Assembly: GCA_017414965.1 (NCBI GenBank)
Contig: JAFQJL010000021.1
Coordinates: 13,886 to 77,885, forward strand
Reading direction: 5' to 3'
Source: Clostridia bacterium
GTDB taxonomy: Bacteria > Bacillota > Clostridia > Oscillospirales > Acutalibacteraceae
DNA: 64,000 bases
Part shown: positions 22,160-41,348 of the stretch, in pieces
Numbering within the stretch: the stretch's first letter is position 1
How the letters are laid out: every line of letters starts with the position of its first letter
Notes under the pieces: model-generated
The model's database searches: none
The model's input: only the letters and a program-made list of their open reading frames with translations
Told to the model about the DNA's origin: nothing
Program-made: the position numbers and the translations under genes

Positions 22160-22600
22160 TCACACGGCGGAATGATAAAATTCTTTATTTCCCATATGAT
22201 TCTCAATGGAACGCCATCTAAGCCCCGAAGCACAAATCAAAGTACCTGCATAATTATCTAGATCGGGTTCTGACAAATTACCGCAGTCACACCAATAAAT
22301 ATTTTCATCTTTCATAATCATTGTAGAATCTAATATTTCGCAGGTATAACTTTCATTAACAGGAAAAAGTTTTAAGTGTTTTAATCCTTGAAATTCCATC
22401 TCTATCATAGAGTTCTTTTCGTATTGTCGTTGAATTACAACTCGTAGAACCCTACGATCATTCAAGGGATGCATTGAAAGGTTTTCACTAACATATGCTC
22501 CACTTATATAACTTATTTCTTTTATGCAACTATCGTGAAAATAGCATACATTTTCCATAAACTTCAACATTTCGTCGTTAGTACGAATTATCTCCCACAT
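22160..22600 (-). CDS. putative immunity protein for the RHS C-terminal toxin
   Basis: 146-aa cytoplasmic protein starting (MWEIIRT, AAGGAAA RBS) 20 nt after the RHS stop. This is the canonical toxin-immunity arrangement. Confidence 0.6.
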   Translation of the reverse strand: MWEIIRTNDEMLKFMENVCYFHDSCIKEISYISGAYVSENLSMHPLNDRRVLRVVIQRQYEKNSMIEMEFQGLKHLKLFPVNESYTCEILDSTMIMKDENIYWCDCGNLSEPDLDNYAGTLICASGLRWRSIENHMGNKEFYHSAV

Positions 22601-22619
22601 AGATGTTTCCTTTCTTAAA

Positions 22620-25600
22620 CTAACCAAATATCAAAATCAAACCTTCTCCAACACCTGTGCCTAACGGTCCAAACAAGAAATCATCAGCAACACCAATTCC
22701 TGTGGCATCATCTGCAGCTACAACAACAATTCCAACAACACATATGGTAACAAGCCCAACACCTAAAACAGGATCTAGTGAAAATTCATAATCTGGCGAC
22801 GGTGGCAGATGGTCTTTTTGTCTTTGTCCATTTTTCCATTCGTGATCGTGTGGGAATGGAATGTCTTTTCCTGGATGATTGTAATCTCTATCTCTAACCG
22901 CATTACCGTCTGGACCATACCATCGTTTCTGTTTAGGAGTTCCGTCAGGATTCGGTAAAGTTTGACTTGAACCTGGTTCCCCTGTTGGTGGCAAATTATT
23001 TGCAGTAGACACAACAACTGAAGAAGAAGGAAAAAAGAAATTCTTTACTGGCTGAATAATATTTTTATTTACCCAATTTGCTGCTGTTTCTATCCACTTA
23101 GGCCAGTTACCTGTCGGATCAGACATATTTACAGGATTGTTCATACAATATGTAAACATATTGTTGCCTAAAATACTTCCACCGACACCGGATATTTGAT
23201 TATCCGCATTAATAAATCGGCCAATTTGCGGATCATAGTAACGGCTGGATGCGTAGTAGAGTCCTGTTTCGGCATCGTAGAAATAGCCGCGATAGCGGAT
23301 GGGGTTGACGGTGCCGATGCCAACGGAGGTGGTATCCGTCATATTGATGAGGTTGCCCCAGGCATCGTATTCGTACGAAACCACCATCGCTCCTTCGGGG
23401 TTGTAGATCCCCACGACGTCGCCGCGCGCATTGGTCGCCACGTAATAACCGACATATCTTGTGTCGTCGTCCGCGTTATAATAATACTTGATCGCCGAGA
23501 GATTGCCGTAGCTGTCATAAGAATAATGAATGTGCCGTCCGTCGCGGATTTCGCCGTGAAGCTGCCCGTCAATATACAGGTATTCGCTCTTGACGCCGTT
23601 GACCGTCTTGGAGGTACGCATACCGTTGTCGTCATAGGTATAGGCAACGGCCGTATTCCCTTTGCTATAACTGCTCAGTTGCCGTCCGTTTTGCCAGCCA
23701 AGCGTGGCGCCCAGATAAGAAACCGGATTGCCGATCTCGTCGTACGTGATTGTGCCGGTCGGAGAAGAAAGCGTCGAGCCCGCTTCGGTAGAAACAGAGC
23801 GCAGCGGTTTTGCCCACGGAGCATCACCGGCACTGCCGTAACCGTAATTATCACAATGGATATGGGTCAACGTGCTCAAGTTCTCCGTAGCGAGATCGGT
23901 GTAGTTATATACCTTGCGACTCAAGCGGTTGCCATATCCGTCGTACGTATAATGGGTGGTTTGGTTTGTTGAAACGAAATTTTCGCGAATGAGCTGGCCG
24001 AGGGCATCGTATTCGTAGGAAGCGTAATCGACAAAGTTTCCGGTTGTGCCGTTTGCCAAGACCTCGCCCTTTTCGATTTCGATGATATTGCCGGCCTCAT
24101 CGTACGTATACCGATACGCCGCGTCGTTAATGGTTTCGACCTCTAACAGCGTTGTTTGATAGAGAGTCTGACTTCCTGTGTTACGGTCAGAACGGTAATA
24201 GGAGTAGGTGTTGGTCAGCGGTGTTTCGGTCGAGAAGGTACGGGCAGTCAGGCGGTTGAGCCCGTCATACGAATAGTCCGCATAGCGAACGCTGGTATAC
24301 AGGTATCGCGTCGGCAGATTGTCGGCCGCATAGCGTTCGGTGGCGGTTTTGCCCGAAATAGCGGAGTAAAGGTATTTTGCCGAATGGGTATGACCGGCAT
24401 ACTCGACAGCCAACTTGGTGAGGTTGTTGCGGCCGTCGTAACCGAACTCTACCATACCGATATGCGTGCCGGTGGTGGATTGAATTAAGGTTTGAATGGG
24501 ACGGTTAATAGAGTCGTACGAATAGGAGAATTTTCGACCCGCAACCAAATCTGTGAACGATTGCAAGGTGCCGCCGGAATCGTACGTGTAATTAAACAGG
24601 GTGTTGGTACCGTTGCCGATAGTGGCGATTTGCCCGAGCCAGCTATAGGAATAGGTCCGAACGTCGCCATTTCCATAGGTGGCGGTTTTCAGTTTGCCGT
24701 TGTTGGCGGCGTAGGTATTTGAGGAAAGCAGATGGCCGTTTACCGACGTGGAAAGCGTGTTTCCAAACCGATCCACTTCAAACGAATACGTATCGGAGCC
24801 GTAGCTCAGCGTATCCAGTCGGTCTCCGTCGTAGGTGTAGGAAACGGTGCCAAGAGAGTGATTGGCGGCATCGGTAACGGTGACGGAGGATAGGCGATCG
24901 TTTGTACTCGAAACGTAGGTGTTGGTGGTCTTGTTGCCGGACGGGGATGTAATGGTAGAAGTGCGGGCATATCCATCGTAGGTATATGTCGTTTTTTTGT
25001 TGTCGGCGTCAACCACAGAAGCGATCTGGGCGCCGGCTTGGATATTCCCTTTAGCTCCAGTATATGTCACATCGGATTTAAATGCAAGTGTTTCATCCTC
25101 ACTTTTTACAACACTCGAAGTGGCCTGACCTCTGGTATTGTAGGTAAAGGTGGTGGTGACGTCACCGGCGGAGGTGGCACTTAATAAGTTGTGCTTGGCA
25201 TCGTAGGTATAGTTATAGTCATAGCCAAGCGCATCCGTGGCGGACGTCATATCCGGTCCGTCGTATTCCATCGTGGATTTTTGCTCTGCGTTGGCAGCGG
25301 TGGAGATCAAATTGCCTTCGTCGTCGTACGTATAGGTGTTCGCATTGTCCCGTATCAACTGGATCCAGTCAAAATACAGAAAATTGGCTTGATTTCTGCT
25401 CCGCGGTCGCACCAGAATGCTTGTCGGTGTGTCGCTGGCATTTTGCGAAGAAACGAGACTGATCACCTGTGAGGCATACTGCCAACCGGTGATGGCGGTA
25501 TTAAACTTTACTGCCGGCTTCGTTTCGGAATAAGTCGTGCCGTCGGCCTTCTTATAATTGACCGCCACATAAATCTCTGCCAAGCAGTTTTCGTGATTGG

Positions 25601-28600
25601 TTCCCTGAGTCGGCGTGCCACACATCCAACCACTCAGAATGTACGTTTCGTTTGGATCTCCGGAGACTGCAACCGATTGCGACAGATACTTATTGCTGTT
25701 AACGCTGGTTCCCATGCGAATGCTGGCGGTGCCCTGAATCTGATTGGAATGGGTGATGCCTTGGGTTACGATAGAGTCATAAGTGGAATACGTAATGTTG
25801 GTAGCCGTCCAATTGCTCGGGAGATGCTCGGAGGTCTCTTTCTCAAAGCTGCAGTTTTGGATGAGGTTGACCGGATGAGCGGTAGTATTCTGCTCCAATT
25901 GAATGCCGTCTACATAGGCGGTACCGGTCATATTGCGGAGAGCGATAGCCGTTCGAACCGATGTGGAATCGGACGGCAGATCGAACGTGACCGATAAACG
26001 GCGCCAGCCGTTGTCAATAGCGGTATCATTGACCGTATCAATGCACTTGGAGCGAACGGTATGTGCGATTCCGCCACTGTCATAACTAACCGAAAGATAT
26101 ACGCCGTTTAATGCATCGCTGTAAACAGAGGTCAGGGTTGTCGTCTTCACATACGCAGAAAACGTATAGGTATTTCCGGCGTTGAGACCCGTTACCGTTT
26201 GTCGGAAATCGGCACGGCCGGCAAGAGCCCCGATGGCAGTGTTGTTGATTTTAATGGATTTCTTTCCGAAATACGCATAGGTAGAGGATGCCGCAACCGT
26301 GGAAGTGGCATTGGTGATAACGGGCGTCCATCCGGTCATACTCTCAACGTTGCCGTTATCTGTGAAATTAACGACGTTTCGACCAAAAGCAGAGGAGATC
26401 ACCACGCGGTTTTGATTTTTCAGTGCGGCGGTGCTTTCCGTGGAATAATCGGTATAGCGGGCGGAAGAGGCGCCGGTGCTCGTCCCCGACATATATCTTG
26501 TCATAGTAGAGGTCAACCGACCAAGGTTATCGAACTGGCAGATGGTCTGCATATCGTCCGAATTGCCGTACACATCGTCTTTGCCGGAGACACGAATGAC
26601 GGTGGTGTTATACTTGGAACGATCAAAACTGACGATTTGCCCAGTCAAACGATTACCTGCGGAATCCGCCGCGCTGTACTCGGTAATTCTGCTGACGCGT
26701 TTGCCGGTAGCCAACGTCGTATACGTAAAGCCAAGCCGATAGTCGGCGTCATCGGTTACGGTCAGCATCGAAAGCGGAGAGGTCGTTTCATAGGTGAAGT
26801 TTGCAACGGTGCCGCCGTAATAGGAGATCTGGCGAACAGTACCGTTGGAATTGCGGTAGAAGTACATCTTTCTACCGAACGGGTCGGTGATGGATTGGAC
26901 GTTGTTGGAGTTGCTGTAATTGAAGGTATACTTATAGCCGGAGCCATCGACGATATAATCAATCTTTTCTCCCTCGCCGATATCAGTCATGTTGCCGGTC
27001 TCCTCAGCGGTGCCCGCCGGCAGAAATGCGATGTCGATCGTTTGGCCGTTGGCGTTGACCATTTGTTTTAGGTTTCCAGCGGAATTAAAGCGGAGTTTAT
27101 TTCCTTCTTTATCACTGATTGTGTAATAAGAAACACTGGTTTTGGGAATGGTGAGTTTCAGGCCGAGACCATCTTCGTCCAAAAACGTAGTCGTTCCGTT
27201 TTCAACCTTTCTTACAAAATAATGATCGGTGCCGTCGGCATCGGTATAGACATACGGGTACTTTTCTTGCATTTCTCCCGTTAAATTGAATTTTGTTGAT
27301 GAAAGTACGGTCTGGTGAACGCTTAAACGCCAACCAGTACCTATGATGGATTTAGAGGAATGGTTGTGGCCGATGTTGTAGTTTATATTGGAGATATAGC
27401 CGTTATATACTAGGTTCATTGACAGAGGCATATTCTGGCTCGGCGAGGTAAACAACGGCGCGACAAAAACCGGGTTGCCGGTGTAGTCGTTTACGTACAT
27501 CGTACCCGCCGTTCCTGCCGGGGCTGCCGTATAGGTCCAATAATCCTCTAAACCCCGATTATTGCGATAGTCAATGATGATAACCGGATACTTGGCGGCA
27601 ATGTCTTCGTCGCTCGTATAGATTTCAGAGCCAAACCAACAAACTGCCAGGTCGGTTTCGGTTTTTGTCTTCAGCATAATGCCATTATTGGCAATTGAGC
27701 CTTCATACCATTGCTTCACAGAACGGGTAATATCGAAATACCGCCATTCCGGTGCAGCAGACACATCTGTGATGAAACAATAATCGTTAACAAGCGAGTC
27801 TGCCAACGAGGGCTGATTGTTCCATGTGACAGACGACGCCGACCAACTACTCCCGATGGTATGTGCGTTGACCTGCATATTTGCCCCGTCTACAAAGCTA
27901 CTGTGCCACATCCGCATAGCGAGATTGGCACCTACAACCATATCGCCTTTGTTCAGTGCCGGCAGATTGAATTTTACCAAGGTGCGCGTTTTGCCATAGG
28001 CATAGGAATCATATCCCACCGAACGAAAGCTTTGTCCGGTGCTGAAATTGGTGCTTGCGTACTCGCTGTCGGAGGCGATAAATGCCGAATCAATTTCTTC
28101 GCGATCTTGCTCAGTGGTAATTATTGGGTCGATTATAACCGGGAAAGTCGTTTCTTCGCTGTTGACCCACGCCGGATCTGCCGTTATTGTAAGAATGGCT
28201 TTATTTTTCGCGCTGCTCAACTCATAAGAAACGGCGGTGGAAATCCGGCCGGCAGAATCGATCATATAAGGAGCGGGAATAACAAATACCACTTCTCCCG
28301 TATCGTTGGCCATCGCCTTGATTCCGCCGTCATCACCGGCGACAAGAGAAACACCCTTGGTTTTGAATTCAAAGGTGTAGGAATATGTATCTGCCGCAGA
28401 ATGGAGGATGATGTTTTCTTTGATTCCTGTTGGAGAGACCTCGTAGTTCAGCGAGGCGTTTTCCTCGAAATAATCATAGGTAATGGACGAGGAAATGGCG
28501 GAAACCGCCTCCATAACTGGATCGGTTCCCTCAACTCGGGCCTTCACGTTACCGGTGACGTTTCGTTTTGTTTTAGAAACGTAATTCCAAGATAGCCGAT

Positions 28601-29027
28601 AGTTTTCTTTATCGATGCGAACAAGCTTGCTACTATTTAGGTTGTTAGCAAATTTAACAGTAAACGGACCACCAGTGGCGATTTGACCGTTCACGTCGTC
28701 CTCTGCCGTTGCCGCTTGGGCGATCAAGGTGTTATCAATGTCCGTCCACTCTCCCTCTTTCAGATAATGGACGGGTGTTGAATAAATAACCGCGCGAGAA
28801 GTGTGATCGCTCATAAAAAAATGCTTTATATTTTCTTCGCGCCGTGAGGTGTCTTCACCTAAAACAACGGGGGCGTTTTCGGTTTCCTCAACCGCAGAGG
28901 TTGTACTTTCTGCAGGAGAGGTGTCGGCAAGAGCCGGAAGCCCTTGCAAAGGGATAAAAAATACAAGCAAAACAAAAGACATGACGAAAGCAATGATACG
29001 ACACATTCGTTTGATAGTTTGGCTCAT
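22620..29027 (-). CDS. secreted RHS/YD-repeat polymorphic toxin (2135 aa)
   Basis: N-terminal Sec signal. Dozens of YxYDxxGNL YD repeats. RHS core end RYYDPQIGRFINAD...NNPVNMSDPTGNW, followed by a 160-aa variable C-terminal domain. Confidence 0.9.
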   Translation of the reverse strand: MSQTIKRMCRIIAFVMSFVLLVFFIPLQGLPALADTSPAESTTSAVEETENAPVVLGEDTSRREENIKHFFMSDHTSRAVIYSTPVHYLKEGEWTDIDNTLIAQAATAEDDVNGQIATGGPFTVKFANNLNSSKLVRIDKENYRLSWNYVSKTKRNVTGNVKARVEGTDPVMEAVSAISSSITYDYFEENASLNYEVSPTGIKENIILHSAADTYSYTFEFKTKGVSLVAGDDGGIKAMANDTGEVVFVIPAPYMIDSAGRISTAVSYELSSAKNKAILTITADPAWVNSEETTFPVIIDPIITTEQDREEIDSAFIASDSEYASTNFSTGQSFRSVGYDSYAYGKTRTLVKFNLPALNKGDMVVGANLAMRMWHSSFVDGANMQVNAHTIGSSWSASSVTWNNQPSLADSLVNDYCFITDVSAAPEWRYFDITRSVKQWYEGSIANNGIMLKTKTETDLAVCWFGSEIYTSDEDIAAKYPVIIIDYRNNRGLEDYWTYTAAPAGTAGTMYVNDYTGNPVFVAPLFTSPSQNMPLSMNLVYNGYISNINYNIGHNHSSKSIIGTGWRLSVHQTVLSSTKFNLTGEMQEKYPYVYTDADGTDHYFVRKVENGTTTFLDEDGLGLKLTIPKTSVSYYTISDKEGNKLRFNSAGNLKQMVNANGQTIDIAFLPAGTAEETGNMTDIGEGEKIDYIVDGSGYKYTFNYSNSNNVQSITDPFGRKMYFYRNSNGTVRQISYYGGTVANFTYETTSPLSMLTVTDDADYRLGFTYTTLATGKRVSRITEYSAADSAGNRLTGQIVSFDRSKYNTTVIRVSGKDDVYGNSDDMQTICQFDNLGRLTSTMTRYMSGTSTGASSARYTDYSTESTAALKNQNRVVISSAFGRNVVNFTDNGNVESMTGWTPVITNATSTVAASSTYAYFGKKSIKINNTAIGALAGRADFRQTVTGLNAGNTYTFSAYVKTTTLTSVYSDALNGVYLSVSYDSGGIAHTVRSKCIDTVNDTAIDNGWRRLSVTFDLPSDSTSVRTAIALRNMTGTAYVDGIQLEQNTTAHPVNLIQNCSFEKETSEHLPSNWTATNITYSTYDSIVTQGITHSNQIQGTASIRMGTSVNSNKYLSQSVAVSGDPNETYILSGWMCGTPTQGTNHENCLAEIYVAVNYKKADGTTYSETKPAVKFNTAITGWQYASQVISLVSSQNASDTPTSILVRPRSRNQANFLYFDWIQLIRDNANTYTYDDEGNLISTAANAEQKSTMEYDGPDMTSATDALGYDYNYTYDAKHNLLSATSAGDVTTTFTYNTRGQATSSVVKSEDETLAFKSDVTYTGAKGNIQAGAQIASVVDADNKKTTYTYDGYARTSTITSPSGNKTTNTYVSSTNDRLSSVTVTDAANHSLGTVSYTYDGDRLDTLSYGSDTYSFEVDRFGNTLSTSVNGHLLSSNTYAANNGKLKTATYGNGDVRTYSYSWLGQIATIGNGTNTLFNYTYDSGGTLQSFTDLVAGRKFSYSYDSINRPIQTLIQSTTGTHIGMVEFGYDGRNNLTKLAVEYAGHTHSAKYLYSAISGKTATERYAADNLPTRYLYTSVRYADYSYDGLNRLTARTFSTETPLTNTYSYYRSDRNTGSQTLYQTTLLEVETINDAAYRYTYDEAGNIIEIEKGEVLANGTTGNFVDYASYEYDALGQLIRENFVSTNQTTHYTYDGYGNRLSRKVYNYTDLATENLSTLTHIHCDNYGYGSAGDAPWAKPLRSVSTEAGSTLSSPTGTITYDEIGNPVSYLGATLGWQNGRQLSSYSKGNTAVAYTYDDNGMRTSKTVNGVKSEYLYIDGQLHGEIRDGRHIHYSYDSYGNLSAIKYYYNADDDTRYVGYYVATNARGDVVGIYNPEGAMVVSYEYDAWGNLINMTDTTSVGIGTVNPIRYRGYFYDAETGLYYASSRYYDPQIGRFINADNQISGVGGSILGNNMFTYCMNNPVNMSDPTGNWPKWIETAANWVNKNIIQPVKNFFFPSSSVVVSTANNLPPTGEPGSSQTLPNPDGTPKQKRWYGPDGNAVRDRDYNHPGKDIPFPHDHEWKNGQRQKDHLPPSPDYEFSLDPVLGVGLVTICVVGIVVVAADDATGIGVADDFLFGPLGTGVGEGLILIFG

Positions 29028-30809: not shown

Positions 30810-31496
30810 ATGATTTATATTACCGGTGATATTCACGGTAATCCTACGCGAATCGTTCGGTTCTGCGAAGAAATGCAGCTTACCGACAAAGATATCGTTG
30901 TCCTTTTGGGGGATGTTGGTGCCAACTATTACGGCGGCAAGAAAGATCGATTCGTAAAGCGTGTTCTTTCGTCTTTGCCGGTTACCTTTTTGTGTGTCCA
31001 CGGAAACCACGAGATTCGCCCACAAAACATCCCCACGTACAAAACAACCCTCTGGAACGACGGTTGCGTGTTTGTAGAGGACGACTACCCCAATATCCTC
31101 TTTGCCGAAGACGGAGAAATTTATAATCTTGATGGCAAAAAAGCACTCGCCATTGGTGGCGCCTACAGCGTAGACAAGTTCTACCGTTTGCAAAGGGGTT
31201 TTGGATGGTGGGCGGACGAGCAACCGTCCGATATCATTAAACAAAAAGTAGAAAGCGTTATGGAGGACAATAAACATATTGACCTTATCCTGTCCCACAC
31301 CTGTCCCAAAAAGTATGTTCCCACCGAAATGTTCCTTCCGATGATTGACCAAAGCACGGTTGATCACTCCACCGAGGAGTGGCTGGATACTATTGAAGAG
31401 AAGGTGCTTTATAGCGCGTGGTACTGTGGTCATTGGCACACAGACAAGCGTATTGATCGACTTCACTTTCTGTTCAAAACATTCGAAACATTATAA
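30810..31496 (+). CDS. metallophosphoesterase (calcineurin-like)
   Basis: GDIHG, GDxxxxxY and VHGNHE motifs. Confidence 0.75.
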   Translation: MIYITGDIHGNPTRIVRFCEEMQLTDKDIVVLLGDVGANYYGGKKDRFVKRVLSSLPVTFLCVHGNHEIRPQNIPTYKTTLWNDGCVFVEDDYPNILFAEDGEIYNLDGKKALAIGGAYSVDKFYRLQRGFGWWADEQPSDIIKQKVESVMEDNKHIDLILSHTCPKKYVPTEMFLPMIDQSTVDHSTEEWLDTIEEKVLYSAWYCGHWHTDKRIDRLHFLFKTFETL

Positions 31497-32447: not shown

Positions 32448-33155
32448 ATGGTTTATGTTATGTCGGACATCCACGGTTGCGGTTCGAGGTTTGAAAATGT
32501 TCTGCAAAAGATTAATCTACAATCGGAGGATGCCTTATATATTCTGGGTGATGTGATTGACCGCGGCCCCGACGGTATTCGGGTGCTGCGCCGTATTATG
32601 AATACACCAAATATGAAGATGCTCTTGGGCAACCACGAATATATGATGTTGGAGTCCTTGTATTATCCTTCTCTTGAGAAAAACAAACACATTTCAAAGG
32701 ATTGGATTCAAAAAACCAAAGTGGACGTGTGGTATCGAAACGGTGGTCGTGTTACGCATGATTATCTGAAACACATTCAAAAATCTGTTCGGCAAGAGGT
32801 ATTTGAGTATGTGGCCGATTTGCCGTTAAACATTCCTATTGAAGTCAACAGCCAAAAATATCTACTTGTCCACGCGGCTGTGGTTGATAATTTTGAGAAA
32901 TATGGCTATGAATATGCCGATCGTACTGAGTATGCGGTTTTTTCAAGGGATGTTTATCGTGAACCGGTTCCGGAGGATACGGTAGTTGTTTTTGGTCATA
33001 CCCCAACAATGTATTTTGAGTATGATAATCCTTTGCAGATTTGGAAGACCGAGAATCGAATTGGTATTGACTGCGGTTGCGCCATCAAACAGTCATTTAG
33101 CCGTCTTGGATGTCTGCGGTTGGATGATCTGCAAGAGTTCTATTCCGACGATTAA
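32448..33155 (+). CDS. metallophosphoesterase (lambda-phosphatase/ApaH-like)
   Basis: SDIHGC, LGDVIDRGPDG and GNHE motifs. Confidence 0.8.
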   Translation: MVYVMSDIHGCGSRFENVLQKINLQSEDALYILGDVIDRGPDGIRVLRRIMNTPNMKMLLGNHEYMMLESLYYPSLEKNKHISKDWIQKTKVDVWYRNGGRVTHDYLKHIQKSVRQEVFEYVADLPLNIPIEVNSQKYLLVHAAVVDNFEKYGYEYADRTEYAVFSRDVYREPVPEDTVVVFGHTPTMYFEYDNPLQIWKTENRIGIDCGCAIKQSFSRLGCLRLDDLQEFYSDD

Positions 33156-33423: not shown

Positions 33424-34527
33424 TTAAATTGCATTCGGTAGATTTGGCTGAGGCAAATTGTTAATACATTGCCGTTTGAATTCCAGCGAGGGGTGCAGAT
33501 AGATGTCGGATGTGATTCGCGTACTGGAGTGCCCTAGAAGTTCAGATAAAGATTTAAGTTCAACGTTGTTTTCCGCACAACGGGTGGCAAACGTATGGCG
33601 CAAACCATGAAACGAAACGTCTGTTACGCCGATGGCGGCGAGATACTTCTTAGCGCGATAATGCATCACTCGCGGCTCAACGATGCTCTGTGTTGGAGTG
33701 CTGAGGAAATAGCAATGCTCCTCTCGCCGAAAACGCTCAACTGACCCTTGTAGAAAATCCGGAATGGGCACGATGCGAGTGGAGGTATTTGTTTTGGGAG
33801 GGCCGATATATATTTCTGTGCCGACTCCATTAGCTTTTTTCAAGCGTTGCATGGTTTTTGAGACATAGATGCACCCATTTGATATATCGCCCCAAGTGAG
33901 CGCACAGATCTCGCCAATTCGCAGACCGCTATATAGAGTTAACAGAACACCTAATTTGGATATATCCATATCTTCTACCAAGTATGCCAACAATCGTTGT
34001 TGCTCCTCGGCGGTAAGGGCCCGGCGGCGCTTTTTTGATTCCGGCAAATACGATATTTCCGGAACTGGAAGCCGATACTGCCGGTATCCGTATTGAAAAC
34101 AAGTGTGGAGAAATACCAAAATGGTATTTACAGTTTGAGGGGACAACCCGCCACTCAAGCGGTCGAGAGAAAATTCGTGAATTTTAAGCGGTGTGAGGAA
34201 AAGAATTGGCAGATCTCCGATATGCGGTTCAATATGATTCCGAAAGAAGCCGTCGTATTTTTGATAAGAAGATCGTCTTAGTCGTGAAGTATTGATATGA
34301 AGCCATTCGCTTGCCAACATGGATACTGTAATTTTTCTGGAGCAGAGTTCCCGTTGGTATAAACGAATTTGATCTTCTTTTTCTTGGCGCTTCTCTTTTG
34401 CCTCTTTACAGGTGTGGGCATATACAGAGCCATATTGTTTTCTGCCGGCTTGATCGTATCCTCTTACATAGCGTGCTTCCCACAATCCATTCTTGCGATG
34501 GTAAACTCCGGTTCCTTTTTTAGGCAT
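33424..34527 (-). CDS. tyrosine-type site-specific recombinase/integrase
   Basis: C-terminal catalytic HGLRHTFAT...LLGHSSTRITSDIYLH. N-terminal arm-binding-like domain. Own terminator at about 33345-33385. Confidence 0.9.
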   Translation of the reverse strand: MPKKGTGVYHRKNGLWEARYVRGYDQAGRKQYGSVYAHTCKEAKEKRQEKEDQIRLYQRELCSRKITVSMLASEWLHINTSRLRRSSYQKYDGFFRNHIEPHIGDLPILFLTPLKIHEFSLDRLSGGLSPQTVNTILVFLHTCFQYGYRQYRLPVPEISYLPESKKRRRALTAEEQQRLLAYLVEDMDISKLGVLLTLYSGLRIGEICALTWGDISNGCIYVSKTMQRLKKANGVGTEIYIGPPKTNTSTRIVPIPDFLQGSVERFRREEHCYFLSTPTQSIVEPRVMHYRAKKYLAAIGVTDVSFHGLRHTFATRCAENNVELKSLSELLGHSSTRITSDIYLHPSLEFKRQCINNLPQPNLPNAI

Positions 34528-34741
34528 CTTAAATCATCCTTTCTGTTGTTTACCACGTCCGGTACCACATTTATTTACCTAAAAGCACAATCACCTCGTT
34601 TCTGTAGTCTATTTTCCGAAAAATTATTGAATTTTTTGGAAAAATGTGTCATACTGGAAGCGGTATAAGATGATTGTAACAGTATTTTATGCGTTATAGA
34701 GTAATCTCATCCACGAAAATTTATTTTGGGAGGAAAAATTG

Positions 34742-35734
34742 ATGGCAAAGTTTTGTACGAAATGCGGGAACCCCGTAGAAGACGGACAGGTGTGCTTGTG
34801 CACAGAAACGCCGCCTATGCAAGGGGTTAAAGACCGTCTGTCCGATATTCTGGGAAAGGTGGCAAATCTCATCGGCTTGGATCTGGGCAGCAACCACGTT
34901 CTGAATCCGTATGAACGCGGCCAACAGATCGTACCGGACAACATCCGTGCCGATGAGGGCGAACAGCCCATCAAGCAATATAACTTAGCACTGTTGCGGT
35001 CTCGCATCCTCTTTAAGCGTGCGGAAGGCCGTCTGCAGGTCACCAACAAACGACTGATCTTCCGCGCGACCGGGATTTCCCTCACCGGCAACACCGTCTT
35101 GCAACACGAGTTTGCTATTCCGGAGATTGCCGGCGTGGAAATCCGCAAATCCAACCGATTCAGCTTCTTGAGCTTGTTTGCGGCCGTTATCGGATCTTTG
35201 ATCGTATGCGGCGCGGCCAACAGCATTTTTTCCTCAATCCTGACAACTTCGGCTTTTTCCTCGCTGGTTGCCTACCTGATCGCTTTTGTAAGCGGCGCGT
35301 CCTTTTTCCTCTTCAAGAAGAAGTTTTGGCTGAAATTGCTCCTGTTATCCATCGGAATGAGCGTGATGCCGGTCTTGACCAACTCGATCACGCTTTCTGC
35401 AGTGATGCTGGGTGGTGAGCATATTGTAAAAAGTCTGCTGACCTTCCCAAACCTTGTAGCTTCGTTACTGGATATTCTGTGGATCTTAGGCGTGATTTTG
35501 GTGTGTATGGTGCCGGACTTAAAAGTGTGCATTAAAACGAAATCGGCCGGCGATGCTATCCAAATCCGCAGAAAAATCTGGGGCTTCGGATTGAAACAGC
35601 ACGACGAGTTCAGTGGATTCTCAGAAGTGCTCCCCGCCGCCGATACCGACTGCGCCGCCAAAGAACTTGGTGCGATGATTGACGATTTGCAAACACTTGG
35701 CGATATGGCGATTGAGAAATGGAAGGAGAATTAA
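34742..35734 (+). CDS. zinc-ribbon / bacterial PH(GRAM)-like / multi-pass membrane protein
   Basis: CTKCG...CLC ribbon. EGRLQVTNKRLIFRATG PH/GRAM-like strand pattern. About 4 hydrophobic helices and a soluble C-terminal tail. Confidence 0.6.
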   Translation: MAKFCTKCGNPVEDGQVCLCTETPPMQGVKDRLSDILGKVANLIGLDLGSNHVLNPYERGQQIVPDNIRADEGEQPIKQYNLALLRSRILFKRAEGRLQVTNKRLIFRATGISLTGNTVLQHEFAIPEIAGVEIRKSNRFSFLSLFAAVIGSLIVCGAANSIFSSILTTSAFSSLVAYLIAFVSGASFFLFKKKFWLKLLLLSIGMSVMPVLTNSITLSAVMLGGEHIVKSLLTFPNLVASLLDILWILGVILVCMVPDLKVCIKTKSAGDAIQIRRKIWGFGLKQHDEFSGFSEVLPAADTDCAAKELGAMIDDLQTLGDMAIEKWKEN

Positions 35735-35736
35735 TT

Positions 35737-35982
35737 GTGATTATAAAATTCGCATCAGATCTCATTAAAATAACCTTTGAGAAAAACGAGCCCTTTGAGG
35801 ATCGTTCCTTGGTTGTTTATGGTGAAGTAATAACCTGCGGATTTGCGGCTATTGTTCCCACAATGAGTTGGTTGTCTCCCTATAAAAAAGATGTTTCTAA
35901 CAACGAATTGCCCTTAATTCGCGATTTAATTCAAAATTATAATAAAGAAAGCAAGTTTTTTATTGACTTGGTTGAGGGTTAA
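35737..35982 (+). CDS. small 81-aa protein (candidate immunity/antitoxin for the adjacent NADase-like protein)
   Basis: GTG start 8 nt after a GGAAGGAG RBS, 2 nt after the upstream stop. Its stop lies 2 nt before the next ATG. Confidence 0.45.
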   Translation: MIIKFASDLIKITFEKNEPFEDRSLVVYGEVITCGFAAIVPTMSWLSPYKKDVSNNELPLIRDLIQNYNKESKFFIDLVEG

Positions 35983-35984
35983 CC

Positions 35985-36770
35985 ATGTTTGATATTGATT
36001 CTTGCTATAGCTGTTTTGCAACAGAGCCCAATTCAGCATATTTCTGGTCTGGTTTGGGGGAAAAAGGAGAGGATATTGCTGCCAATATAGCAAAAGAGAA
36101 CAATGGTGTAACCCTTGAAACATTAATGCGCGAACATAAGGATGAACTGATAAACGCCGGATTTGAATATGATAAAGAACTGGACCGTTTTCTTTTTTCT
36201 CCAGACAATTACTCTGATTGGGAGGCAATCTCTAAAGCTTACGCGGAACAAGCATCTGGCGAGGTGCGCGCTATTTTGGGAGATAATATACGCCAAGATA
36301 GCGTATGGAATACCAAAGAACAACCGGCATTATCAAACAACAATACTGTCAGCAAAATAATTTCTGTTGATCCTAAAACAGGTCAAGAGAAAGATGTTTT
36401 GTTGGATAAATCCGCAATACAAGAATCTGCATATTCTCAAAACGCCCCCCTGAGCATATCATCAACCAATATTAAATCCATTGGCGGTGGCGGTTCTCGC
36501 GCGCCAGATCAATTAATAGCCGGCAAATCACCACCTCAAACCGTCTCCCAGGAGTCCGGTTCGACCGCAGAAACCGCGGGACGGTTGCCTCAACAAACTC
36601 AAACTCCGGTGACGGCCACAGATACACAACAATCGGGCACCACGCCGGACAAAAAGCAAAACATTGATATTCCATCAAAACAATCCAACTTTGCAGTTTC
36701 AAACGATCTTGCGCAAACAGCAGATGAAAAACCTATCAAAGGTGTGGATGTTGCATCTGGTGTTACCTAA
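35985..36770 (+). CDS. ADP-ribosyl cyclase/CD38-like (Tox-ARC) NAD-glycohydrolase-fold protein with disordered P/Q/T-rich C-terminal half
   Basis: YFWSG...VTLETL...DWEAISKAYAEQASGEV...DSVWNTKEQPAL aligns with few gaps to Aplysia cyclase MFWSG...ITLEDTL...FWGMASSSYAHSAEGEV...DSFFGKYELPNL (recalled from memory). This includes the catalytic Glu position (E112, nt 36318-36320). Confidence 0.65.
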   Translation: MFDIDSCYSCFATEPNSAYFWSGLGEKGEDIAANIAKENNGVTLETLMREHKDELINAGFEYDKELDRFLFSPDNYSDWEAISKAYAEQASGEVRAILGDNIRQDSVWNTKEQPALSNNNTVSKIISVDPKTGQEKDVLLDKSAIQESAYSQNAPLSISSTNIKSIGGGGSRAPDQLIAGKSPPQTVSQESGSTAETAGRLPQQTQTPVTATDTQQSGTTPDKKQNIDIPSKQSNFAVSNDLAQTADEKPIKGVDVASGVT

Positions 36771-36779
36771 GGAGGTTTT

Positions 36780-38099
36780 ATGAACACAAATAAAAAACAA
36801 CAATCCTCCGTGTTGTTTGGCGAAGAATTACATAGGGCTTGTCCCAACATTACAGAAAATAATGCCAGTTGCTATTTGCAAGGAGTCGATTCGTCCGGAC
36901 AAGCTGTCACGTTTCCTATGAGTGTAGATCTGCTGAGCAAACACATTCTGCTTTTGGGCGGTATCGGAACGGGTAAGACCAATACGTTTAATCAAATGAT
37001 CGCGCAGTTGAATCAAACCATTACCAGCGATGACATTGTGATCATTTTTGATGCCAAAGGTGATTTTTACCGCGAGTTTTATCGCCCGGGCGACGTGGTG
37101 ATCAGCAACGATTCTACTGCCATCGGCAAAGGTGTATTGGATTACTGGAACATTTTTAATGAAATCGACCGCGGGGAGCGCTTGACAGAGAGTGTCGTAG
37201 AGATATCGAAAGCATTGTTTGCGGAAGCGTGCGAGAAAACCAACCAAATCTTCTTCCCAAACGCTGCTAAGGATATCTTTATGGCGTGCCTATTGCATTT
37301 TATTCGCCACTATTCGCTGGAACAGCAGACAAACGAAAATCTGGTGTATTACATTAACGCCAGTAGTTCGGCAGACATTCGCGCTATGTTGGAGTCGTAT
37401 GACGATCTGCGTGCGATGAGCAGCTACATTTCCAATGACGAATCCCCGCAAACGCAGGGCGTGTTGTCGGAATTGCAACAGGTCGTTCGTGAGATCTTTC
37501 TTGGAAACTTTGCCAAGACGGGAACTCTTTCGCTAAAACATCTGGTGAATGCAAAAGGTGGCATTCGGGTGTTTATCGAATACGATTTGAGCATCGGAAA
37601 AATGCTGTCCCCGGTATACAGTTTGATGTTTGATATGGCGATCAAAGCCGCCCTCAGCCGAAACCGTAGTGCCGGCAACGTGTATTTCATCACCGATGAA
37701 TTCAAGTTGCTGCCGCACCTTAATCACATTGATGATGCGGTAAATTTCGGCCGAAGTCTTGGCATCAAATTTATGGTCGGCGTGCAAAACGTGGAACAGA
37801 TCTACGACAACTACGGTGAGGACCGCGCCCGAAGCATTATGTCGGGTTTTTCCACCAATATCTGTTTTCGCGTCAACGATGCAAAATCCCGTGAATATAT
37901 CCAAGGATTGTTTGGCAAAAACCAAAAAATCGAAACATATATGCCGACTATCCAAAATAAAGGAATGATTGAGGCCCAGCGTGAAGCCAACGTGGTGGAG
38001 GACTGGGATATTACGCGGTTAAATATCGGCGAGGCCATAGTCGGTCTGCCGGGATACGAACCGTTCGTGTTTCAATTTGAACGTTACAAGGAGAAATGA
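36780..38099 (+). CDS. soluble TraD/TrwB/VirD4-like (type IV coupling protein family) P-loop ATPase
   Basis: Walker A GGIGTGKT; VIIFDAKGDFY; YWNIFNEI; FFPNAAKDIFMACLLHF; Walker B VYFITDEF; VGVQNVEQIYDNYGEDRARSI. No N-terminal TM segment. Confidence 0.7.
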   Translation: MNTNKKQQSSVLFGEELHRACPNITENNASCYLQGVDSSGQAVTFPMSVDLLSKHILLLGGIGTGKTNTFNQMIAQLNQTITSDDIVIIFDAKGDFYREFYRPGDVVISNDSTAIGKGVLDYWNIFNEIDRGERLTESVVEISKALFAEACEKTNQIFFPNAAKDIFMACLLHFIRHYSLEQQTNENLVYYINASSSADIRAMLESYDDLRAMSSYISNDESPQTQGVLSELQQVVREIFLGNFAKTGTLSLKHLVNAKGGIRVFIEYDLSIGKMLSPVYSLMFDMAIKAALSRNRSAGNVYFITDEFKLLPHLNHIDDAVNFGRSLGIKFMVGVQNVEQIYDNYGEDRARSIMSGFSTNICFRVNDAKSREYIQGLFGKNQKIETYMPTIQNKGMIEAQREANVVEDWDITRLNIGEAIVGLPGYEPFVFQFERYKEK

Positions 38100-39244
38100 A
38101 AATGAAATATTGCGAAAATTGTGGCGCTCCTATTAAATTTATGGAGAAGCACGTTTGTCCAAACGAGGATGGAAATCCTACTGTTTTGGCCACCGAAAAA
38201 CCGCCGTTTCCAAAAAAATATAAGATTTTGATTGGTTGCGTCTGTCTGGCGGTATTTATTGGCCTGATAATTGCCTCATCCGTAGGGGTTGGAAAAATTG
38301 ATCCATTTGATTATACCAGCGTTTCTTTTGAGGGATACGATTCCGCCGGTCGTGTTTCTGTTTTCTTTGATGAGGATGCACTGATCCAAGAAATCATTGG
38401 GCCGGAACCGAGCGATTTAGGGGAAGAATACGCTGAATGGTTTATGAAGTACGATACATATTCGACATGTGTCAAATGTCAATATGAGCCCGAGGAAGGG
38501 CTCTCCAATGGTGATACAGTTACGGTTACGTTCACGGTCGATGATACCGTAACGAGCCGGATCAAAGCAGGTAAAAAGGAATTTACGGTTGAGGGTTTGC
38601 CGGAATTAGAAAAAATTGATGTGTTTAGTAATGTGGTGCTCAAGTATGAAGGCGTTGAAGGTCAAGCACACGCGATGGCAACCATCGGTTTGGATGTCAG
38701 TTTTTTTAACGATATTCGTATGAATATTGAGCCAAACGAAAATTTGAAAAACGGAGACATTATTACCGTTTCGGTTTCGAACGTCGATGACTTAGCCGAA
38801 ACTTATCAACAAATTCCGGCCGAGATCTCACGACAATATACCGTAGAGGGATTACCGTCGTATATTACGGAAGCTTCTCAGGTCCCGGTAGACGAGGTGA
38901 AATCGTTGGCGGCGGACTTTTTAAAGGAGAAGCAAGCGAATATAAAGGATGAAGCATTCTTTTCCTATTCCGATGTCAAATTGTATGGCATATATTTTAT
39001 GGAGCCCAAAGAAGGAACTTATGAAGATCCTTCTCTTTGGATTGTTGTTTCCTGCAAAGAATATATGGATGGGAGTTTTAGAGACAACCTGTACTTCCCT
39101 TTAAAATTCGATGACCCTATCATTCAGCCGGATGGCACGATGGGATATAAGTGGGACGATGGAGAACACGCAACTTTTCTCACAGGCGATTCATTCCCAA
39201 TGGAGTATGTTACAGCGAAATACAATGTGACGAAGATATTATAA
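38096..39244 (+). CDS. zinc-ribbon, single-pass membrane protein with repeated extracytoplasmic beta-rich domains
   Basis: CENCG...HVCPN ribbon, TM helix ILIGCVCLAVFIGLIIASSV, repeated NGDxxTV(T/S) units. ATG overlaps the ATPase stop. Confidence 0.6.
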   Translation: MKMKYCENCGAPIKFMEKHVCPNEDGNPTVLATEKPPFPKKYKILIGCVCLAVFIGLIIASSVGVGKIDPFDYTSVSFEGYDSAGRVSVFFDEDALIQEIIGPEPSDLGEEYAEWFMKYDTYSTCVKCQYEPEEGLSNGDTVTVTFTVDDTVTSRIKAGKKEFTVEGLPELEKIDVFSNVVLKYEGVEGQAHAMATIGLDVSFFNDIRMNIEPNENLKNGDIITVSVSNVDDLAETYQQIPAEISRQYTVEGLPSYITEASQVPVDEVKSLAADFLKEKQANIKDEAFFSYSDVKLYGIYFMEPKEGTYEDPSLWIVVSCKEYMDGSFRDNLYFPLKFDDPIIQPDGTMGYKWDDGEHATFLTGDSFPMEYVTAKYNVTKIL

Positions 39245-39249
39245 AATAA

Positions 39250-39284
39250 AACGCCTCGGATTTTTAATCCGAGGCGTTTTTTGT
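39250..39284 (+). terminator. operon terminator
   Basis: AACGCCTCGGA-TTTTTA-ATCCGAGGCGTT hairpin plus T-run. Confidence 0.85.
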
Positions 39285-39699: not shown

Positions 39700-41348
39700 C
39701 TACAGTGGCATTATATAGTACTTTACTTAATTTGTCAAGAGTTTACATGTTTCGAGGATGCTTTGAAAAGCATCCTCCTTTTTTACGGAGGAAATACCAA
39801 AACAGAAAGGATAACAAAATGTACTTCGTAAAAAAGATCGACGAAAGCTTTTCCCAGGCGTTAAAAGATATTGTCTCTAACCGAAAGCAATATGTAAGAA
39901 ATCCTCTAACGGATTTTACTCGAAAACGAAAAATGAATATGCGGGATGTTATATCTCAAATTCATTCTATGACTGGTGGTTCGCTTCAAAAAGAGTTATA
40001 TGATTGGTCGAAAATCAAGAAGATTTCTCTTACGGCTTCGGCGTTTGTACAACAAAGGTCCAAAATTCTTAGCGATGCATTTAAAGATATTTTCTATCAC
40101 TTTAACTCCTACTGTAATGACTCTAAAAAATATCGAGGTTATCGATTGATTGGAGTAGATGGAACAGATGTAAGTTGCCCGCGCAATCCCGATTCTCCCA
40201 ACTTTATAACAACATCACAATCTCCGGAAGGAGTTAATCGCATACATGTTAACGCCCTTTATGATTTATGCAATCACACATATGTTGATATCCTATGTCA
40301 ACCCCCAAAGCAGGCAGACGAAAGAGCTGCATTAATCGAGATGTTACACCGAAAAGCGCTTAAAGAAAAGACGCTTTTTGTGTTTGACCGTGGATATGAG
40401 AGTTACAATTTATTTGCGCACATAATTAATACGGAGAATGCAGATTTCGTATGTCGAGTGAGACAGAGCAATAGCGGAATGAGTAAAATCAAAACACTTC
40501 CTATGAAAGAATTTGATATAGATATTACTTTTGATATTACAACCACACAAACGAACGAGGATAAACTTCAAGGGCGCATATGGATTCAAACCGGAAGCAA
40601 AAAGGGCAAGATCAACAGCCCTAAGACAAGAGTTAGACAGTGGGATTTCCCTTCGCCGTATTCATTAAAACTAAGAGTGGTGCGCTTTTTGTTGGATAGT
40701 GGAGAATATGAAACTTTAATTACATCGTTAAGTAGAGAGGAGTTTTCGCTTCAAGATCTCAAAAAACTTTACCATGAGCGGTGGAATATTGAGATATCTT
40801 TCCGTGACTTAAAATATCCTATCGGATTGACTTATTTGCATAGCAAAAAAGATGATTTGATTCTGCAGGAAATCTATGCTGCGGTTACCATGTACAATTA
40901 TTGTAGCAGAATTGCCAGTAGTGTGGATATAAGTCGCTATAATGGCCGAAAACATGCATATAAGGTGAATTTAGCTATGGCTATACATATATGCAAACGC
41001 TTTTGTCTTTCTAATACTAAAAAATACAAAAGCTTACTTAATGACATAAATAGGTATGTAATTCCCCTTCGTCCCGGACGAAGGGATGAGCGAAAAATGC
41101 GACCAAAACGATTTGTCGGATTTATATATCGTGTGGCCGCGTAAGAAAAGCAAGTTTATACTTGCTTTTCTCGTCATACCAAAAATCGAAGAATTTCTTC
41201 ATTTTTCGCCTTAATTATAAGTGCAAAACTCATTTTAAACGCAATTTTATGCTTTTTATTTTTAAATTTCTTAACTTAATGCACGTTTCACAAAAAGAAA
41301 AAGATAGAGAGCGAAAAATTTCTTTTCACACTCTATCTTAATGACATT
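39700..41348 (+). mobile_element. IS4-family insertion sequence copy (proximal left end imperfect and approximate)
   Basis: Transposase gene plus right end CTTAATGACATT (41337-41348). A possible proximal left end, TGGCATTATATAG (about 39704), resembles TGTCATTAAGATAG of the right end. Confidence 0.5.
39819..41144 (+). CDS. IS4-family DDE transposase
   Basis: YHERWNIEISFRDLKY matches the Y-(2)-R-(3)-E-(6)-K signature; DDE_Tnp_1-like layout. ATG at 39819 after an AAAGGA RBS. Confidence 0.85.
   Translation: MYFVKKIDESFSQALKDIVSNRKQYVRNPLTDFTRKRKMNMRDVISQIHSMTGGSLQKELYDWSKIKKISLTASAFVQQRSKILSDAFKDIFYHFNSYCNDSKKYRGYRLIGVDGTDVSCPRNPDSPNFITTSQSPEGVNRIHVNALYDLCNHTYVDILCQPPKQADERAALIEMLHRKALKEKTLFVFDRGYESYNLFAHIINTENADFVCRVRQSNSGMSKIKTLPMKEFDIDITFDITTTQTNEDKLQGRIWIQTGSKKGKINSPKTRVRQWDFPSPYSLKLRVVRFLLDSGEYETLITSLSREEFSLQDLKKLYHERWNIEISFRDLKYPIGLTYLHSKKDDLILQEIYAAVTMYNYCSRIASSVDISRYNGRKHAYKVNLAMAIHICKRFCLSNTKKYKSLLNDINRYVIPLRPGRRDERKMRPKRFVGFIYRVAA

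Follow-up and report, generated by a model that had tools for sequence, protein, structure and literature searches.

A putative reverse-built polymorphic NADase toxin of ADP-ribosyl cyclase fold, encoded with an Imm74-like partner and a TrwB-like ATPase in Clostridia

The bacterial ADP-ribosyl cyclase (ARC) domain was defined in 2012 as Tox-ARC, a polymorphic-toxin domain that goes with Imm74 immunity proteins (PMC3482391). Tac1 is an LXG toxin of type VIIb secretion (T7SSb) that rapidly hydrolyses NAD(P)+ via a cyclic ADP-ribose (cADPR) intermediate; mutagenesis showed that its residue E573 (CD38 E226) is essential and that E516 (CD38 E146) drives cADPR hydrolysis, and the toxin is neutralised by the Imm74 protein Tci1 (PMC12356396). 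The Nac enzymes are orphan 'non-toxic' ARC proteins without an immunity gene, and the one assayed, Nac1, has Ala at the E146 position (PMC12356396). ARCtox (PANA_2924) of Pantoea ananatis is a toxin linked to a PAAR protein of type VI secretion (T6SS), an NAD(P)+ hydrolase with no cADPR release (PMC12605009). According to the ARC surveys of 2025, the domain is C-terminal and stands behind type V secretion (T5SS), T6SS, T7SS, pyocin, Flp or Fn3 modules (PMC12356396, PMC12605009). Here we describe an ARC gene built the other way round, in a stretch of 64,000 nucleotides (nt) from a Clostridia bacterium (the window, within which all coordinates are counted). The open reading frame (ORF) under study, at 35985..36770 on the + strand, encodes 261 amino acids (aa) with the ARC domain first and a long disordered tail last, and it stands in an operon with an Imm74-like gene and a gene for a TrwB/VirD4-like ATPase. 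We hold it very probable that the ARC protein acts against bacteria as a toxin that depletes NAD(P)+ and is kept in check by its Imm74-like partner. With moderate confidence, we favour the wider reading that it is a polymorphic NADase toxin built in reverse, with a tail by which the ATPase recognises it for export.

The ARC domain, a predicted NAD(P)+ glycohydrolase toxin domain of CD38 fold, comprises residues 1-145 (35985..36419, + strand), and its ORF carries a GAGGG ribosome-binding site 7 nt before the ATG. In a sequence search of the PDB, residues 2-139 matched 9ro8_A, the Pantoea ARCtox deposited as 'ADP-ribosylcyclase toxin' (E=1.3e-22), and 9ouf_A, Tac1 of Streptococcus parasanguinis (E=2.4e-22). 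The second entry is deposited as 'Ribonuclease' and also titled 'an ADP-ribosyl hydrolase from Streptococcus parasanguinis'; we assume that this is the Tac1 structure reported in PMC12356396. With a profile built from the alignment of 17 ARC family members, both matches strengthen to ~1e-28. The AlphaFold2 (AF2) model has a predicted local distance difference test score (pLDDT) above 90 over residues 1-145, and Foldseek places 9ro8 (template modelling (TM) score 0.87) and 9ouf (TM 0.74) on top of its PDB matches, followed by Aplysia cyclase, CD38 and CD157 (E 1e-5 to 1e-3), while the Vibrio RDTND NADase was also matched. Profiles alone would have given little: Pfam PF02267 (Rib_hydrolase), a model built mainly from eukaryotic sequences, reaches 16 of the 25 bits set as its cut-off and covers no more than residues 77-117 (E=0.0078), and NCBIfam and PADLOC profile searches of the protein returned no match, which is why the domain was assigned via the PDB sequence and fold searches.

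The key codons of the domain are those of W21 (36045-36047), E45 (36117-36119), W79 (36219-36221), S83 (36231-36233) and the catalytic E112 (36318-36320). E112, E45, W21 and W79 are in register with E179, E98, W77 and W140 of the Aplysia cyclase and, together with S83, with the corresponding columns of Tac1 and ARCtox. W21, S22, G23, W79, S83 and E112 do not vary across the 17 relatives, and conservation at E45 is 90% or higher. A first-pass annotation, made from the letters of the window, had already proposed the CD38/ADP-ribosyl-cyclase fold and the placing of W21, E45, W79, S83 and E112 in its active site, and on both points it was right. It had also aligned residues 19-116 to the Aplysia and human enzymes with 'almost no gaps'. 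Here the pairing of the motifs stands and the absence of gaps does not: comparison of the ARC profile with Aplysia cyclase 1lbe pairs YFWSG with MFWSG, vTLE with ITLED, dWeaiSqaYAeqasGEV with FWGMASSSYAHSAEGEV and DSvWntkElPaL with DSFFGKYELPNL, yet the alignment is weak alone (E=0.9) and needs several insertions. As to the checks that it had suggested, the PF02267 profile did hit residues 77-117 and fell short of the gathering threshold, while the predicted structure found the Aplysia, CD38 and CD157 enzymes.

How does this domain compare with those already described? With Tac1 it shares the ARC core of ~140 aa, both glutamates (E573 is E112 of the window protein and E516 is E45), the Trp residues and a partner of the Imm74 family, and the same rapid NAD(P)+ hydrolysis via a cADPR intermediate is predicted for it. 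Tac1 differs in being a C-terminal toxin behind LXG, with Lap targeting factors, the T7SSb and a downstream immunity gene, whereas the window locus has an N-terminal toxin with a disordered C-terminal tail, upstream immunity, a TrwB-like ATPase and Zn-ribbon proteins, and no WXG, LXG or EssC. ARCtox, the best structural match, has the same catalytic residues; it differs in forming the C-terminal part of a PAAR spike protein, which the T6SS of a diderm delivers. CD38, CD157 and Aplysia cyclase (PF02267) have the positions W125/W77, E146/E98, W189/W140, S193 and E226/E179 (CD38/Aplysia) in common with the window protein, as well as that half of the fold which carries the catalytic site. They are proteins of ~250 aa with a further helical subdomain and multiple disulfides, and they have signalling roles as secreted enzymes or ecto-enzymes. 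The first-pass annotation had listed what the bacterial protein lacks, and the list proved accurate: sequence and fold comparison find no N-terminal helical subdomain, C7 and C10 are the only cysteines, a hydrophobicity scan detects no transmembrane or signal-like segment, and the ARC domain starts at residue 1 with no trafficking domain ahead of it. Three distant ARC relatives (P0024, P0025 and P0027) have the classical layout of N-terminal trafficking domain and C-terminal toxin. Small size, on the other hand, is no novelty, because Tox-ARC and the Tac1 and ARCtox proteins have the same core of ~130-150 aa, which is the normal bacterial form. Judged by sequence and predicted fold, the protein is a new member of the known bacterial ARC toxin family, and we infer for it an NAD(P)+ glycohydrolase activity. 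One stand-alone relative, P0006, has Ala at the column of E45, as in the cADPR-releasing Nac1, and might release cADPR rather than ADP-ribose.

The gene upstream, at 35737..35982 on the + strand, encodes an Imm74-like protein of 81 aa from a GTG start at 35737, or of 87 aa if the ATG at 35719 is used. The GTG is favoured by the GGAAGGAG ribosome-binding site ahead of it, and NCBI annotates an identical protein likewise as 81 aa. Searched against Pfam, neither the 81-aa nor the 87-aa form gives a direct Imm74 match even at E<=10, so the assignment rests on profile-profile comparison and on a sub-threshold match of a 57% identical protein, P0153, to PF15603 Imm74 (E=0.0016). In the profile-profile comparison, hhalign of the 81-aa family with the Imm74 proteins of classical ARC-toxin loci gives Prob 96.6% and E=4.9e-10 over 61 of 75 columns. 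Aligned jointly, the two families are collinear and share two invariant features, a G-E that corresponds to the published 'G[DE]' signature and a W. In two classical C-terminal-ARC toxins from Clostridia, a Pfam-annotated Imm74 gene of 74 aa follows directly adjacent to each toxin gene. Where an ARC protein occupies the slot described below, its partner is solely of the 81-aa Imm74-like family or of the c14 family, which accompanies the more distant ARC proteins and is itself related to the Imm74-like family. These comparisons make the 81-aa protein a divergent Imm74, the immunity family of ARC toxins, and it is predicted to neutralise the ARC protein. An immunity gene upstream argues, therefore, that the enzyme is a toxin and not a housekeeping or signalling cyclase.

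The other part of the ARC protein is the tail. Residues 146-261 plus the stop codon (36420..36770, + strand) form a C-terminal module consisting of a disordered linker rich in S, T, Q and P, the motif GGGGSRAPD inside the module at residues 167-175 (nt 36483-36509, + strand) and the terminus ...ASGVT (nt 36753-36767, + strand). The AF2 pLDDT is below 50 at residues 147-261, and in the tail P, Q, T and S account for 43% of residues, compared with 19% in the ARC domain, in agreement with the disorder that the first-pass annotation had read there. To see this tail in its context we relied on the ATPase encoded next to it. An ATPase-based scan of one genome per species returned 208 related stretches, and 80 loci were fetched, with ATPases 53-73% identical to that of the window; their hosts are mostly gut Clostridia, with some Chloroflexota and a few metagenome-assembled genomes placed in other phyla. 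The gene directly upstream of the ATPase was defined as the cargo, gene calling being crude. This cargo slot is polymorphic. ARC occupies it at ~8 of 84 loci, and elsewhere the heads are Endonuclea_NS_2 (3e-18), HExxH/SprT-like, a weak GNAT match and several families without any match, in proteins of 115-1112 aa. The gene that precedes the cargo covaries with it, as an immunity gene would. A signal-like N-terminus is present in 1 of 56 cargo proteins, which points to a non-Sec route.

What unites these proteins is their end. At the end of the cargo proteins a low-complexity linker leads into a short motif, such as ...GMGM, ...GFNM, ...DMSM, ...GYGY, ...TGIT or ...SGVT. The strict form of this motif, [GDNS][MYIF][GSDN][MYIFV]$, terminates 25 of 53 distinct cargo proteins and only 7 of 1277 background ORFs, which are the other ORFs of at least 100 aa from the same loci (odds ratio 162, p=4e-32), and the seven background carriers look like cargo missed by the filter. 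Internally, GGGxxAP occurs in both ARC and non-ARC cargo, yet in 2 of 1682 background ORFs. Tails are also alike where heads are unrelated: those of P0013 (ARC) and L005 (non-ARC) agree in 72% of their last 40 residues (E=6e-16), those of P0005 (ARC) and L011 (non-ARC) match at E=2e-14, and the window ARC tail matches that of the non-ARC cargo of L004 at E=6e-5. Tail-bearing cargo proteins are always encoded beside the TrwB-like ATPase, and the type of tail follows the ATPase clade, with 20 Y to 5 M endings in one clade and 1 Y to 25 M/I in that of the window. By these alignments, the tail is a conserved and portable C-terminal module common to ARC, nuclease, HExxH and other heads. As the tail is common to unrelated cargo, it is a candidate trafficking element of the ARC protein, whereas classical polymorphic toxins carry theirs at the other end; and since cassettes elsewhere join tails of this kind to different toxin heads, the cassette behaves as a polymorphic toxin system. 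It is the mirror image of a classical polymorphic toxin (Zhang et al. 2012), with a constant C-terminal module, variable heads and co-varying partners. The first-pass view of a 'minimal cytoplasmic' stand-alone enzyme with an incidental tail is consequently not supported, given the Imm74-like partner and the shared tail module.

Some cargo proteins show features of their own. In the HExxH cargo of L050 (5298-6983) and L054, more than 200 aa of EPSEEN/EPSEGN repeats precede the ending ...YYGYGY, and the 620-aa protein of L089 (11015-12877) consists almost wholly of EPEVEQE repeats. A second common cargo family (...GPVxRVDINNPEEHGLR...) is found at L007 (region 6256-6987, + strand) and also at L008, L011, L030 and L038; at L007 it forms a partner/cargo pair, 5751-6248 (+ strand) with 6256-6987 (+ strand). 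The partner there, of family u2, has a weak match to IFS, the immunity protein of the Streptococcus pyogenes NADase SPN, at E=6e-5 and below the cut-off, and neither u2 nor its cargo matches SPN or TNT structures of the PDB by sequence. As an unconfirmed hint, this family may be another NAD-targeting toxin.

All five genes of the operon (34739-39244) can now be considered together: a 331-aa membrane protein, the immunity gene, the ARC toxin, the 439-aa ATPase and a 382-aa protein. They are separated by gaps or overlaps of 2, 9 and -4 nt, carry good ribosome-binding sites and are closed by a bidirectional hairpin resembling an intrinsic terminator, with a 15-bp stem, recognised in the sequence at 39248..39280 (no strand assigned). 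The ATPase (36780..38099, + strand) is a soluble TrwB/VirD4-like P-loop protein with intact Walker A (GGIGTGKT) and Walker B (YFITDEF) motifs, read from the sequence, and an AGGAGG ribosome-binding site; it begins 9 nt past the ARC stop. It matches the Pfam families TrwB_AAD_bind (7.4e-46), T4SS-DNA_transf (9e-20) and TraG-D_C (1e-16), and TrwB (1e9r/1gl6) is the nearest PDB entry (E=2.3e-13). No hydrophobic or transmembrane segment was found in it, so the N-terminal anchor of coupling proteins is absent, and the NCBIfam equivalogs for type IV coupling proteins (T4CPs) all score far below their cut-offs (CD1115, for instance, 80 against 250). Conjugative plasmid T4CPs are at most ~28% identical to the window ATPase. 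Its closest plasmid relatives, at 38%, lie on non-mobilizable megaplasmids of Paenibacillus and Curtobacterium, and phage records hold no homologue. One of these relatives belongs to L089 (Paenibacillus amylolyticus pY5S7-1, 281638-298924), a distant cassette variant in a cultured isolate in which a PH-like/transmembrane protein with a C-terminal Zn-ribbon is encoded directly upstream of the 38% identical ATPase; this strain could serve as an experimental model.

The membrane components flank the toxin and ATPase genes. The first gene of the operon (34739..35734, + strand) encodes the 331-aa protein, of the 'c0' family, which has an N-terminal Zn-ribbon, a cytoplasmic PH-like beta domain, four transmembrane helices (seen as four hydrophobic segments) and a conserved C-terminal helix (GDMAIEKWK). 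Its Pfam matches, Zn_Ribbon_1 and GRAM, are weak, its AF2 model has a pLDDT of 88.7, and a Foldseek search of this model against the PDB gave at most weak PH-domain similarity and no secretion or defence relative. The c0 membrane family counts 327 unannotated homologues and 876 representative clusters. The last gene (38096..39244, + strand) overlaps the ATPase stop by 4 nt, and its 382-aa product has an N-terminal Zn-ribbon supported by weak zinc-ribbon matches only, one transmembrane helix (residues 40-69) and an extracytoplasmic region of ~310 aa; it joins the c0 cluster by single linkage. A member of this cluster is present at 51 of the 56 distinct ATPase loci with enough flank, often in two copies. 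The gene order of the cassette recurs at L001, L003 and L084-L086. Six contexts were annotated over ~8-10 kb around the cassette, which lies either next to an integrase and large RHS or LHH toxin loci or among housekeeping genes. None of the six contained a relaxase, VirB4, VirB6 or other gene of a type IV secretion system (T4SS), a WXG100 or EssC-type Pfam match, or phage structural genes. We rejected a conjugative element on the absence of nearby relaxase and VirB genes and on the distance of the plasmid T4CPs. T7SS variants (T7SSa-j) are defined by WXG100 proteins and a membrane-bound multi-domain FtsK-like EssC/EccC ATPase (PMC11217815), and a T7SS variant was rejected for want of both in these contexts.

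We propose the following model. ARC toxin would be made in the cytoplasm of the producer and kept inactive by the co-translated 81-aa protein encoded upstream. The linker, the GGGxRAP motif and the terminal G-hydrophobic motif would be the handle for the hexameric-type TrwB/VirD4-like ATPase, which may dock on the Zn-ribbon/PH-like/4-transmembrane protein together with the single-pass Zn-ribbon protein that bears the large ectodomain. By driving the toxin out of the cell, the ATPase would strip off the immunity protein. Once in a susceptible cell, the toxin would deplete NAD+ and NADP+ with E112 as catalytic residue and, because E45 is retained, we would expect it to yield chiefly linear ADP-ribose and not cADPR. 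The model builds on what is observed here, namely the fold, the catalytic residues, the homology to Imm74, the operon, the polymorphism of the cargo, the modularity of the tail and its covariation with the ATPase. More tentatively, and at slightly less than even chances, the cassette could be a self-contained protein-export pathway, that is, a new type of secretion system derived from conjugative coupling proteins. Such a pathway would be found mainly in monoderm gut Clostridia and Chloroflexota, and would use a short C-terminal G-hydrophobic signal after a disordered linker. The soluble TrwB-like ATPase and both Zn-ribbon membrane proteins would form its core, and its substrates would be reverse-built polymorphic toxins with an immunity protein apiece, the ARC NADase here and, at other loci, nucleases, metallopeptidase-like proteins and others.

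Recognition of this kind has precedents. VirD4-type coupling proteins and the FtsK-like ATPases of T7SSs recognise C-terminal signals of their protein substrates, as exemplified by the XVIPCD effectors of Xanthomonadales, which are N-terminal toxins with cognate immunity proteins, by the C-terminal signals of Dot/Icm substrates and by EccC-EsxB. The X-Tfe/X-Tfi pairs of the Xanthomonadales T4SS (X-T4SS) follow the same logic as the cassette, with variable N-terminal toxins, a C-terminal element, a VirD4-type presumed receptor and immunity proteins. However, the X-T4SS has a full VirB1-11 channel, operates in diderms and uses as XVIPCD a folded domain of ~120 aa, whereas the window cassette has no VirB genes, occurs mostly in monoderm Clostridia and in Chloroflexota, and combines an anchor-free ATPase with a short motif after a disordered linker. 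A reverse domain arrangement has been described in TslA, a T7SSb lipase toxin of Staphylococcus aureus (PMC10730906). In TslA, an antibacterial toxin of a Gram-positive organism, the toxin domain comes first and the targeting region last, the order proposed here for the ARC protein, but the C-terminal region of TslA is helical and LXG-like, binds small helical partners and uses EssC; the window tail is disordered and goes with a single-domain TrwB homologue.

A number of points weigh against our model. Enzymatic activity, neutralisation, recognition of the tail, export and the identity of the target are inferred. No channel is recognisable in the cassette, and nothing like VirB or T7SS lies within ~10 kb in the six contexts; nor does the model account for the entry of an exported NADase into the target cell. 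The window terminus ...ASGVT fits the loose variant of the motif, 'G-[ILV]-[TQEKV]', and not the strict one, about a quarter of the cargo proteins have no motif, in part owing to crude gene calling, and the association of tail type with ATPase clade (Fisher p=1e-8) is uncorrected for shared ancestry. The immunity gene is upstream, against downstream in classical polymorphic toxin loci. Finally, sets of toxin, antitoxin and ATPase genes are also typical of abortive-infection defence systems, and in PADLOC-DB v2 the ATPase matches mad8 at 1.4e-21 and, weakly, HerA.

This last point leads to the alternatives. The cassette might serve abortive infection or defence against mobile elements: a membrane-held ATPase would sense phage or plasmid DNA, or a phage protein, and free the tethered NADase from its antitoxin, so that NAD+ collapses in the infected cell by analogy with SIR2-HerA, and the tail would be a tether instead of an export signal. 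The joining of NADase effectors to FtsK/HerA-superfamily ATPases is indeed an established design: SIR2-HerA and MADS, like the cassette, encode such an ATPase together with an effector that depletes NAD or is otherwise toxic. The mad8 and HerA matches, the swappable effectors beside a constant ATPase, the location in variable low-GC islands with integrase, insertion sequences (IS) and other conflict genes, and the lack of a recognisable export channel are all in keeping with a defence role. This is the main rival to our model, yet we judge it unlikely. PADLOC-DB v2 gave no match for the other four operon proteins, and no PADLOC model fits any of them. We also rejected a MADS assignment of the ATPase, since the mad8 match, like those to HerA, reflects only the shared TraD/FtsK-like fold and neither a methyltransferase nor other mad genes accompany it. 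The partner belongs to Imm74, an immunity family of secreted polymorphic toxins. In its length of up to ~1100 aa, its long linkers, either acidic or rich in S/T/P, and its signal-like motif at the end, the cargo is reminiscent of secretion substrates. The core includes membrane proteins, one with an extracytoplasmic domain of ~310 aa. As neighbours the cassette has polymorphic toxin loci (RHS, LHH) and not restriction-modification or CRISPR systems, and some cassettes lie amid housekeeping genes.

There are two further explanations. If the ATPase were the accessory coupling protein of an integrative element, the toxin could be handed to a T4SS channel encoded elsewhere and passed into recipients. 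That the ATPase is a genuine TrwB/VirD4 homologue, that T4CPs recognise C-terminal signals and that a tyrosine integrase is adjacent at four loci would suit such a hand-off, and some Gram-positive T4CPs, pIP501 TraJ among them, have no transmembrane anchor either. But the six contexts hold no T4SS genes, some cassettes stand between housekeeping genes, the conjugative T4CPs are distant while the 38% relatives are on non-mobilizable megaplasmids, and the c0 membrane proteins accompany the ATPase at nearly all loci (51/56), which argues for a self-contained apparatus; we regard a hand-off as improbable. It is less probable still that the ARC protein is a non-toxic cytoplasmic cyclase of the Nac kind, producing cADPR or hydrolysing NAD for physiology or signalling and having a tail by accident. 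Non-toxic bacterial ARC enzymes do exist (Nac1, PMC12356396), the window protein has neither signal peptide nor N-terminal trafficking domain, and its relative P0006 shares the Ala of Nac1. The window protein, though, keeps E45, whose Tac1 equivalent drives full hydrolysis, and is translationally coupled to an Imm74-like gene, whereas Nac enzymes are defined by the lack of an immunity gene; it is therefore Tac-like rather than Nac-like. Its tail, moreover, is conserved, modular and common to nuclease and other cargo. Compared with SIR2-HerA and MADS, too, the cassette has none of their other components and possesses an immunity protein of the secreted-toxin type, a long terminal tail and membrane core proteins with ectodomains. 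A reverse-built polymorphic toxin remains the reading that we prefer.

The surroundings of the operon are those of a variable region. It lies in a low-GC island that extends from about 20 to 42 kb of the window, with 43-50% GC against 52-59% in the flanks. Its neighbour on one side is a tyrosine recombinase/integrase gene (33424..34527, - strand; Phage_integrase 2.7e-22), and an integrase adjoins the cassette also at L001, L003 and L084. The window integrase has the orientation seen in L084 and is inverted with respect to L001 and L003, whose integrases lie on the + strand; an invertible switch formed by it was rejected, there being no flanking inverted repeats. On the other side, directly past the operon terminator, lies an IS transposase gene (39705-41144, + strand; DDE_Tnp_1 2e-22). 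Farther off, a gene on the - strand (22620-29027) encodes an RHS-repeat polymorphic toxin of 2135 aa with a Sec-type signal peptide, a core ending in DPTGNW and a C-terminal toxin region of ~120 aa that ends in a hydrophobic stretch. The Sec signal peptide and the separate C-terminal toxin past DPTGNW, together with the absence of the tail motif, led us to reject this protein as a further cargo. The gene directly downstream of it (22160-22627, - strand) encodes 155 aa without Pfam match and is probably its immunity gene. At L001, L003 and L084 large LHH-type toxins take the same position. Between the RHS locus and the integrase there are two genes for calcineurin-like metallophosphoesterases (30810-31496 and 32448-33155, + strand), and the corresponding regions of L001, L003 and the Paenibacillus L089 likewise contain Metallophos or HAD_SAK_2 genes. 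At the edge of the island, a gene at 20955-22037 on the - strand encodes a predicted lipoprotein-like protein of 360 aa with weak similarity to RCC1/WD40-like repeats.

What is new about this locus? It is the packaging and not the ARC domain, which was predicted in 2012 and characterised in 2025. The reversed architecture, the portable tail and the cassette of ATPase and membrane proteins are absent from both ARC surveys, and the literature that we searched contains no prior description of the cassette, although its coverage was incomplete and this is hence no proof of novelty. ARC would thereby gain a further mode of deployment, with the toxin first and the tail last. If the tail is an export signal, the cassette would represent a new and compact route of interbacterial toxin delivery in abundant gut anaerobes such as Oscillospiraceae, Lachnospiraceae, Faecalibacterium and Ruminococcus, whose antagonism machinery is poorly known, and the tail would provide a simple and testable sequence rule for finding effectors. 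Should the cassette serve defence instead, it would add a new design of abortive infection that is based on a NADase. Either reading gives a function to several large families of 'hypothetical proteins'.

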